DNA from: Escherichia coli
GTDB lineage: Bacteria > Pseudomonadota > Gammaproteobacteria > Enterobacterales > Enterobacteriaceae
NCBI RefSeq assembly: GCF_003334335.1
Contig: NZ_QOWQ01000001.1
Length of the DNA stretch: 64,000 nucleotides
Strand: one strand, 5' to 3'
Of the stretch, positions 47,901-49,185 are shown piece after piece (position 1 is the stretch's first letter; each line of letters begins with the position of its first letter). The translations under genes were made by a program, and so were the position numbers. The notes beneath the pieces were generated by a model. The model did not search any database. It was given only the letters and a program-made list of their open reading frames with translations, and was not told the DNA's origin.

Positions 47901-48383
47901 TTACCTTGCACAATGCATTATTGCTCTGTTACCAATGCTCAAAATAAAAGCATGCTTACCTTGCTTTAGTATATTATAGCTTACACTTTTTTCTGGAAAG
48001 ACATAAAAATCAGGAATAAGTTGTGCAAGTCTATCATCATCAACTTGATCCATAATCTCAAACTTATTAACTTTCTTTGATGTTAAATGGGCTGTGTCAT
48101 AGTTTTCAATCCATGTGTATTCAATATTTCGCCGTATTGATTTACTTTCTCTGTTACCTTGTTGCCAGGTTCCACTCAACGCAACAGTTCCTGTTTTATT
48201 TTTTTTGTTATACATAAAGTCGATGGTAAGATTTGCTCGTCCCTGGTCATTAAAAATTACCCAATTTGCAGTGCATGTTTCGTTATATATCATTTTTTCT
48301 GCAGTGTAAGAATAGACAGTGAAGAGAATAAACCCACTGATAAAAACTAAAATAAATAATAAGTTTTTTTTATAATCAATCAC
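47901..48383 (-). CDS. yqeJ: Single-pass membrane protein, probable partner of YqeI (FidL/ToxS-like role)
   Basis: 160 aa from the GTG at 48383; an in-frame GTG at 48395 is an alternative start. It has the N-terminal TM helix LLFILVFISGFILFTVY. It overlaps the yqeI stop (GTGATTGA). Confidence 0.75.
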   Translation of the reverse strand: MIDYKKNLLFILVFISGFILFTVYSYTAEKMIYNETCTANWVIFNDQGRANLTIDFMYNKKNKTGTVALSGTWQQGNRESKSIRRNIEYTWIENYDTAHLTSKKVNKFEIMDQVDDDRLAQLIPDFYVFPEKSVSYNILKQGKHAFILSIGNRAIMHCAR

Positions 48384-49185
48384 GATTAACCTCACGGTAA
48401 GACAGGGTTAAACAGTTTGCCACTTCATGTTGGTTATAGTTTTTATTGCATGCCATAACAATCATCCCCGGTGAGGATTTTGCAAGAGGGAAGTATAACC
48501 ACGGATGTTTTTTACAGTTAATCCCCGAATCCAGTATCCGTGTTTTATATTTATCGAACTCTTTCAACCCATCAATTGTATCTTCTGTTACATTAAAATG
48601 GCAGCCATTAATTTCCGCAACAGTCTTGTAATCCTTGAAAAATGGCTTCGGTTGATTATTATTCCATAGCCAATATGCAGAATATGCGCCTATGACAAAT
48701 GCGCTCAACATAATTAGATGACTTTTTATATTTTTGAGGATTTTGTTATTGAAATTCTTTGCGCCACCAATGCTCTCTTTGTATCCCGCATTAACTTTTA
48801 TGGCAGGTGGGGCATTGTGTGTATGTGCGTCTGTTGACGAGTTTATTACATGATTTTGTATGTTAATGTCATTATGGATCTTGAATCCTCTTCTCGGCAC
48901 GGTTGCAATTAGCGAGTGGGTAGTATCACCAACAGCGCGAAATCCGCGTCTGATAATGGATATGTTCTGATATAACGTGTTAGTAGGCACACGCATACCT
49001 TCTTCTTCCCAGACTCTGGTGAAAAAATCTTGTTGTGCAACCACATCAGGAAAAGCTTCAAGTAGAAGTGATAAACATCGACTGGCTGGCGTTGTCAGAA
49101 CGACGTTAAGATCGGCGTTATGTACCGATATTAATTTTCGGTGCTCAGGCCAGAACTCGATATTATCGTTAATAATCCAGTACAT
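48376..49185 (-). CDS. yqeI: ToxR/CadC-like membrane-anchored transcriptional regulator
   Basis: 269 aa. It has an N-terminal OmpR-type winged helix (...TNTLYQNISIIRRGF...VPRRGFKI), a central TM helix (LIMLSAFVIGAYSAYWLW) and a periplasmic C-terminal domain. Confidence 0.88.
   Translation of the reverse strand: MYWIINDNIEFWPEHRKLISVHNADLNVVLTTPASRCLSLLLEAFPDVVAQQDFFTRVWEEEGMRVPTNTLYQNISIIRRGFRAVGDTTHSLIATVPRRGFKIHNDINIQNHVINSSTDAHTHNAPPAIKVNAGYKESIGGAKNFNNKILKNIKSHLIMLSAFVIGAYSAYWLWNNNQPKPFFKDYKTVAEINGCHFNVTEDTIDGLKEFDKYKTRILDSGINCKKHPWLYFPLAKSSPGMIVMACNKNYNQHEVANCLTLSYREVNRD

Follow-up and report, generated by a model that had tools for sequence, protein, structure and literature searches.

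What do the adjacent genes yqeI and yqeJ of Escherichia coli encode, and do their products form one signaling system? In the stretch of E. coli DNA analyzed here (64,000 nucleotides of contig NZ_QOWQ01000001.1, hereafter the window), both genes are located on the minus strand at the edge of the island that encodes type III secretion system 2 of E. coli (ETT2). A sequence-only reading of this DNA had described them as a membrane-spanning regulator and its membrane partner, mirroring ToxR/ToxS of Vibrio as well as the MarT/FidL and GrvA/FidL pairs of Salmonella and enterohemorrhagic E. coli (EHEC). Our analysis arrived at a similar answer: yqeI-yqeJ is very probably a co-component transmembrane transcription regulator cassette of the VtrA/VtrC-ToxR/ToxS superfamily, MarT/FidL subfamily. 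This answer is correct, not new; the classification, the homology to MarT/FidL and the formation of a periplasmic-domain complex have been in the literature since 2022.

The yqeI-yqeJ junction and its conservation

The coding sequence of yqeI (48376-49185, minus strand) starts with ATG and specifies a protein of 269 amino acids, a membrane-anchored transcription factor of the ToxR/MarT type. It is followed by yqeJ (47901-48383, minus strand), which starts with GTG and encodes 160 amino acids, a partner protein of the FidL/YqeJ family. Both genes were defined from the open reading frames and agree with the RefSeq annotation. The statement that yqeJ starts inside the yqeI stop was borne out by the sequence: the eight nucleotides GTGATTGA (48376-48383, minus strand) are shared by the two genes and contain the stop codon of yqeI (TGA) as well as the start codon of yqeJ (GTG). 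An alternative GTG further upstream, at 48395, would give a protein of 164 amino acids. The shorter version was favored because a Shine-Dalgarno-like GAGG (48390-48393, minus strand), embedded in the last codons of yqeI, precedes the second GTG by 6 nucleotides; this motif probably serves as the ribosome-binding site of yqeJ. RefSeq gives the identical overlap of eight nucleotides for strain EC5 and for K-12 MG1655, where yqeI occupies 2988502-2989311 and yqeJ 2989304-2989786. Compared with K-12, yqeJ of the window is identical and yqeI differs by one nucleotide.

Conservation of this arrangement was followed in one genome per species with an alignment of 11 YqeJ sequences as the query. The scan yielded 31 loci encoding YqeJ relatives, distributed over Escherichia, Shigella, Citrobacter, Salmonella, Kosakonia, Klebsiella, Trabulsiella, Enterobacter, Kluyvera, Yokenella, Buttiauxella, and Phytobacter, with one locus in an assembly labeled Vagococcus. 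A YqeI homolog was encoded directly upstream on the same strand at all 31, and the arrangement is therefore not due to chance. The pair was intact at 29 loci; the exceptions were Shigella flexneri, in which yqeI was fragmented, and one Enterobacter, in which both genes had decayed. At 28 of the 29 intact loci the start codon of the partner gene overlapped the 3' end of the transcription factor gene, and at 25 of them the junction had exactly the form seen in the window, i.e. a start at -8 (RTGANNTRR, with GTG or ATG as the start codon). The other four comprised two Escherichia species with the same start and a stop 6 nucleotides further downstream, one overlap of 4 nucleotides, and one ambiguous case. 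Motifs resembling GGAG, GAGG, or GGGG were found within the last transcription factor codons at most other loci as well. The neighboring gene yqeH was considered as a third conserved member and rejected. Because it was linked to the cassette only in Escherichia and at one Kluyvera locus, the conserved unit is the yqeI-yqeJ pair.

These data bear on the idea that the two genes are adjacent by coincidence, in which case YqeJ would be a small membrane protein with no relation to YqeI, and YqeI would act alone in the manner of CadC. YqeI indeed gave a weak, partial match to the NCBIfam CadC family (expect value (E) 3.4e-4, far below the cut-off), and YqeJ had no match in the Pfam and NCBIfam libraries scanned. 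The co-occurrence at 31 of 31 loci together with the conserved overlap, the homology of YqeJ to FidL, the ToxS/VtrC-like predicted fold, and the published complex of the two proteins (PMC9214523) effectively refute this idea, and the probability left to it is close to nil.

Some junctions and loci had features of their own. The GGAG-like motif falls in conserved Arg-Gly codons at the C terminus of the transcription factor (48376-48393 in the window and the junctions of loci L006-L035), and these codons may be under a double constraint, from the protein and from the ribosome-binding site. Phytobacter massiliensis (L027, 2970-3010) has an ATG at -8, but the YqeJ-like frame downstream of it is out of phase with this ATG and in phase with the stop codon of the transcription factor, an oddity that likely stems from a frameshift in a T-run or from an assembly error. 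In Shigella flexneri SFBU0723 (L008, 2206-3479) yqeI was split into four or more frame fragments and yqeJ was intact, with 90% identity; the regulator gene is decayed in this strain. The region has been reported as missing from the ETT2 remnant of Shigella (PMC9214523). Three Trabulsiella genomes (L022/L034, L025/L031, and L028/L032) each carried two YqeI/YqeJ-like cassettes on a single contig, separated by about 6-15 kb. They look like local paralogous duplications, reminiscent of STM0341/0342 and STM0344/0345 of Salmonella.

Domains and predicted folds of YqeI and YqeJ

The OmpR-type winged helix that had been read from the sequence of YqeI was recovered by Pfam: Trans_reg_C matched residues 28-102 (48880-49104, minus strand) with 37.5 bits, above the gathering score of 26.2 (E 2.5e-9). 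When YqeI was compared by sequence with all solved structures, the best match of its N terminus (residues 2-103) was the DNA-binding domain of ToxR (8b4b and 8b4c, E 1.6e-7). A single candidate transmembrane segment was predicted, by hydropathy only, at residues 157-174 (LIMLSAFVIGAYSAYWLW; 48664-48717, minus strand). It has basic residues (KNIKSH) in front of it and is moderately hydrophobic, with a mean Kyte-Doolittle value of 1.57 and a value of 1.34 for the best window of 19 residues. The remaining ~95 residues (48379-48663, minus strand) make up the predicted periplasmic domain, close to the 100 or so of the sequence-only reading, which had also proposed a single membrane helix.

Four conserved cysteine residues, Cys195, Cys224, Cys246, and Cys258, are located in this C-terminal domain, and all four align with cysteines of MarT. 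Cys246 and Cys258 were present in all 29 YqeI-family sequences and Cys195 and Cys224 in 28 of the 29. In the remaining sequence, from Salmonella enterica subsp. diarizonae (L016), tyrosine occupies both of the latter positions. Because Cys195 and Cys224 were lost jointly and the other two are invariant, the pattern suggests that Cys195 and Cys224 form one disulfide and Cys246 and Cys258 another. Such conserved cysteine pairs would fit an oxidizing compartment. Mean pairwise identity among the 29 sequences was highest for residues 1-105 (0.71) and amounted to 0.46 for the C-terminal domain; the linker between the DNA-binding domain and the membrane segment is not conserved (0.16). For the C-terminal domain, neither a Pfam match nor a sequence match in the PDB was obtained. 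The best PDB match of its profile was a Csm6 chain (E 0.002), which was taken as spurious, the hits being at chance level.

YqeJ has a strongly hydrophobic segment at residues 8-26 (48306-48362, minus strand; best 19-residue Kyte-Doolittle value 2.26), for which AlphaFold2 modeled a helix spanning residues 4-30. About 130 residues follow, so the topology proposed from the sequence, one N-terminal membrane helix plus a domain of about 130 residues, was upheld. Residues 35-159 (47907-48281, minus strand) are predicted to form a periplasmic, eight-stranded, lipocalin-like barrel with Cys37 and Cys158 on its first and last strands. The scans of Pfam, in a release without PF27292, and of NCBIfam returned nothing for YqeJ. 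A word-indexed search with YqeJ found Escherichia relatives only, every one of which carried PF27292 (YqeJ_C), as did the cluster representative of YqeJ, which is 99% identical to it. A HMMER search with an Escherichia YqeJ profile extended the family to 128 cluster representatives at E ≤1e-3. The relatives were about 155-160 amino acids long, nearly all of them within 150-165, with an N-terminal hydrophobic stretch, a cysteine near position 35, and a second one three residues from the end. Among 97 diverse members that were aligned, Cys37 was invariant and Cys158 was at least 90% conserved; both were present in all 29 cassette sequences, and in the model they fall in strands 35-44 and 153-159.

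A search of YqeJ with the Pfam family FidL_like (PF15941) had been proposed as a check of its kinship with FidL. No match was obtained at E up to 1. However, PF15941 also missed the genuine FidL of Salmonella pathogenicity island 3 (SPI-3) as well as a Citrobacter homolog, and it weakly matched just 4 of the 97 family members. Because FidL itself fails PF15941, the negative outcome says nothing on the kinship of YqeJ and FidL. The Pfam family that covers both proteins is PF27292.

The AlphaFold2 model of YqeJ, built with the 97 diverse homologs, consisted of the N-terminal helix and eight strands and reached a predicted local distance difference test score (pLDDT) of 93.6 and a predicted template modeling score of 0.80. 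An earlier model from eight close Escherichia sequences (pLDDT 51.9) was discarded. When the model was compared with 350,542 PDB chains by Foldseek, the top three matches were all ToxS chains, among them ToxS of Vibrio parahaemolyticus (8u2f_A, E 3e-4) and ToxS from the ToxR-ToxS heterodimer of Vibrio cholerae (8alo_B, E 4.8e-4). VtrC (5kew_B) superimposed with a template modeling score (TM-score) of 0.68, and generic lipocalins ranked next. Two methods placed ToxS and VtrC as the top structural neighbors of the YqeJ model, in line with a ToxS-like fold. A profile of the YqeJ family retrieved no ToxS chain from the PDB at E up to 10; the hits were at chance level. Similarity was not detected at the level of sequence, and YqeJ is linked to ToxS and VtrC by fold and gene organization only. 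It is not a sequence-level member of the ToxS family and resembles ToxS in fold and role.

Relation to MarT/FidL and other co-component pairs

A closer relationship was found with Salmonella. There, a YqeI homolog (P0136, 285 amino acids) is encoded in a locus together with a cation-transporting ATPase (mgtB), a 154-residue protein carrying PF27292, and an autotransporter of 968 amino acids. This is the mgtB-marT-fidL-misL locus of SPI-3, and MarT and FidL were named by this synteny. YqeI and MarT are 40% identical over 267 amino acids (E 1e-71), and YqeJ and FidL are 42% identical over 153 amino acids (BLASTP, E 5e-42). The proposal that the pair mirrors MarT/FidL was borne out by direct sequence homology of both proteins. 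In addition, the two cassettes agree in gene order and strand, in all six periplasmic cysteines, and in the presence of PF27292 in both partner proteins. With the Salmonella marT-fidL DNA as the query, only yqeI was retrieved from E. coli genomes, at one site per genome, and YqeI/YqeJ have been called orthologs of MarT/FidL (PMC9214523). The cassettes differ in their setting. MarT/FidL adjoins the gene for the autotransporter MisL, which it activates (PMC9214523), whereas YqeI/YqeJ, bordered by yqeH and yqeL/yqeK, sits on the margin of ETT2 and lacks a neighboring adhesin gene. They also differ at the junction: according to the gene caller, fidL starts 10 nucleotides past the marT stop (L001), whereas yqeJ overlaps yqeI by 8 nucleotides.

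The resemblance to ToxR/ToxS has several elements. Among solved structures, the DNA-binding domain of ToxR is nearest in sequence to the YqeI N terminus, the periplasmic domain of ToxS is the closest solved fold to the YqeJ model, and both systems comprise bitopic proteins with the transcription factor gene placed first. In this sense, i.e. a ToxR-like DNA-binding domain, a ToxS-like predicted barrel, and paired genes, the comparison with ToxR/ToxS was justified. However, sequence similarity was detectable neither between YqeJ and ToxS nor between the YqeI periplasmic domain and that of ToxR. There is no overlap of toxR with toxS (PMC9214523), and the hallmark of the FidL/YqeJ group, paired cysteines in the N- and C-terminal strands, is missing from ToxS (PMC9214523). 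For VtrA/VtrC of V. parahaemolyticus, sequence identity in the structural alignment was 6-9%, and VtrA is devoid of periplasmic disulfides (PMC9214523). GrvA/FidL of EHEC and YqeI/YqeJ have been described as paralogs within one subfamily, and YqeJ-like and FidL-like sequences are hard to separate in clustering (PMC9214523). GrvA/FidL differs in occupying a separate locus and is a reported regulator of adherence that depends on the locus of enterocyte effacement. The EHEC grvA-fidL genes were not retrieved at the DNA level with the Salmonella marT-fidL sequence in a search set for distant matches, which found only yqeI.

Much of this picture has been published. Kinch et al. (2022) described YqeI/YqeJ as a co-component cassette of the VtrA/VtrC-ToxR/ToxS kind, tied YqeJ to FidL by HHsearch, pointed out the conserved disulfide, and listed ECK2845 YqeI and ECK2846 "YqeJ lipocalin" among the candidate systems (PMC9214523). 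They also modeled the periplasmic domain of YqeI as a VtrA/ToxR-like alpha-beta fold with the C-terminal helix missing and reported dimeric complexes upon co-expression of the periplasmic domains of YqeI and YqeJ (PMC9214523). A survey from 2023 lists YqeJ in the role of associated protein for YqeI (PMC10269533), and a preprint from 2026 includes YqeIJ among the co-component regulators (PMC13042144). Deletion of yqeI in avian pathogenic E. coli (APEC) reduced flagellation, motility, serum survival, adhesion, and colonization (PMC7552227). In another paper from 2026, YqeI appears only as a predicted partner of MtlR, with no clear effect. The sequence-only reading had called the signal and partner dependence of the module unstudied. 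For the module itself this would be out of date, given its published assignment, complex, and deletion phenotype; on the signal of YqeI/YqeJ or the dependence of YqeI on YqeJ, no paper was found in the literature searched. On one point our data disagree with the earlier work. Kinch et al. marked YqeI/YqeJ as an exception with non-overlapping frames (PMC9214523), whereas an overlap of 8 nucleotides is present in RefSeq K-12 and at 25 of 29 loci. The discrepancy is small; if the overlap is indeed the rule in this subfamily, it amounts to a small correction to the 2022 paper.

The surroundings of the cassette in other genomes showed two recurrent features. Outside Escherichia, chaperone-usher fimbrial genes often adjoin the cassette (PapD_N in 7 and Fimbrial in 2 of 89 neighbor proteins, L006-L035), and the neighbors in Citrobacter (L003/L004, 958-2989) are likewise of this fimbrial type. 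In addition, an EcpR-like regulator lies near the cassette in both ETT2 and SPI-3 and is not found there in most other genera. In the window this is YqeH (49519-50151, minus strand), which has a GerE/LuxR-type C terminus and matched NCBIfam EcpR with E 2.3e-20, below the cut-off. In SPI-3 a protein with an EcpR_N domain (PF27348) is encoded just past misL (L001, 8409-8858).

Proposed function and genomic setting

How might such a cassette work? By analogy with the family and its literature, the overlap would couple translation and thereby ensure joint synthesis of the two proteins. The C-terminal domain of YqeI would dock on the YqeJ barrel in the periplasm as a heterodimer, consistent with the reported complex (PMC9214523). 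The cavity of the barrel might bind a small hydrophobic, host-derived molecule in the way that VtrC and ToxS bind bile salts. Binding of ligand, partner, or both could then stabilize YqeI and promote its oligomerization, after which the membrane-tethered winged helix would activate target promoters. The phenotype of the APEC deletion points to flagellar, adhesion, and serum-resistance genes as being under YqeI control. A bolder version of this scheme is offered tentatively and is, in our estimate, more apt to fail than to hold. According to it, YqeI-YqeJ is functional and senses a hydrophobic molecule from the host, for instance a bile acid or fatty acid, to switch flagellar and adhesion genes in most E. 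coli, commensals included, the stoichiometry of the two proteins being fixed by the 8-nucleotide coupling and by the ribosome-binding site in the Arg-Gly codons. The family runs virulence programs in Vibrio, Yersinia, Salmonella, and EHEC, with gut signals sensed outside and DNA acted on from the membrane. Most E. coli, K-12 among them, carry this family in the form of YqeI/YqeJ, which makes the pair a convenient model.

It is also conceivable that no ligand is involved and that YqeJ merely stabilizes YqeI against regulated proteolysis, as in the case of TcpH and TcpP and, partly, of ToxS and ToxR; the signal would then be conveyed by proteases or by the disulfide or redox state. The four conserved periplasmic cysteines of YqeI and the two of YqeJ are compatible with control that depends on redox state or folding, inhibition of proteolysis has been named as one role of such partner proteins (PMC10269533), and the FidL/YqeJ subfamily has no member with a known ligand (PMC9214523). 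On the other hand, the predicted barrel of YqeJ has the fold with which VtrC and ToxS bind bile salts, and the barrel domain is conserved, with a mean pairwise identity of 0.52, and under purifying selection. Moreover, stabilization and ligand binding are not mutually exclusive. Altogether, we regard a purely stabilizing role of YqeJ as possible and not as the likelier outcome.

Several observations weigh against the assignment as a co-component cassette. The region is AT-rich (31-36% G+C), and its expression may be low in many strains. The promoter scan stayed at background, with 14 promoter-like sites against 11.3 expected, and so did the terminator scan, with 1 terminator-like site against 1.1 expected. 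The membrane segment of YqeI is only moderately hydrophobic (1.34 in its best 19-residue window), and the profile of the YqeI periplasmic domain retrieved no chain of ToxR, VtrA, or CadC from the PDB. Likewise, YqeJ has no sequence similarity to ToxS or VtrC. On the supporting side, when matrices of pairwise identity were compared between domains, those for the periplasmic parts of YqeI and YqeJ correlated best of all pairs (r 0.86), a weak hint at co-evolution, and indirect support for a heterodimer, that is confounded by phylogeny.

A further question is whether the genes are functional at all or are a silent remnant of the decaying ETT2 island, kept by drift in strains such as K-12. The island DNA stands out as foreign: G+C was 31-38% over the ETT2 block (40000-52000 in the window) and ~50% from 52 kb onward (yqeF, kduI, and kduD), and the rise near 52 kb, just past yqeG, marks the island boundary. 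ETT2 is degraded in many strains; neighboring genes are frameshifted in EC5 and annotated as pseudogenes in K-12, yqeI is fragmented in the S. flexneri locus L008, and 1688 of 5426 complete E. coli genomes gave no match to the region. Nevertheless, both open reading frames are intact and near-identical to those of K-12. The yqeI-yqeJ region was present in 3738 of the 5426 genomes, chromosomal in every case, and 3603 of them contained it at ≥80% coverage. The ratio of nonsynonymous to synonymous substitutions (dN/dS) in comparison with three other Escherichia species was 0.13-0.15 for yqeI and 0.18-0.23 for yqeJ; therefore, both genes are maintained by purifying selection. Together with the phenotypes of the APEC yqeI deletion (PMC7552227), these results render a functionless remnant improbable and favor the maintained co-component cassette.

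The location at the edge of ETT2 that had been noted from the sequence was correct. The cassette is flanked by yqeG and yqeH on one side and by yqeL, yqeK, ygeF, ygeG, and ygeH on the other, where type III secretion genes follow. The nearest neighbor, yqeL (47788-47868, plus strand), is a small open reading frame (26 amino acids in K-12, MKDVDQIF...) convergent with the 3' end of yqeJ. The stop codons of the two genes are 32 nucleotides apart, and no terminator-like hairpin was found in between. In the window this gap (about 47869-47900) is free of IS1A, and in the eight best-ranked matches to the query (H1-H8, 100% identical to it) a copy of IS1A is inserted between yqeJ and yqeL/yqeK.

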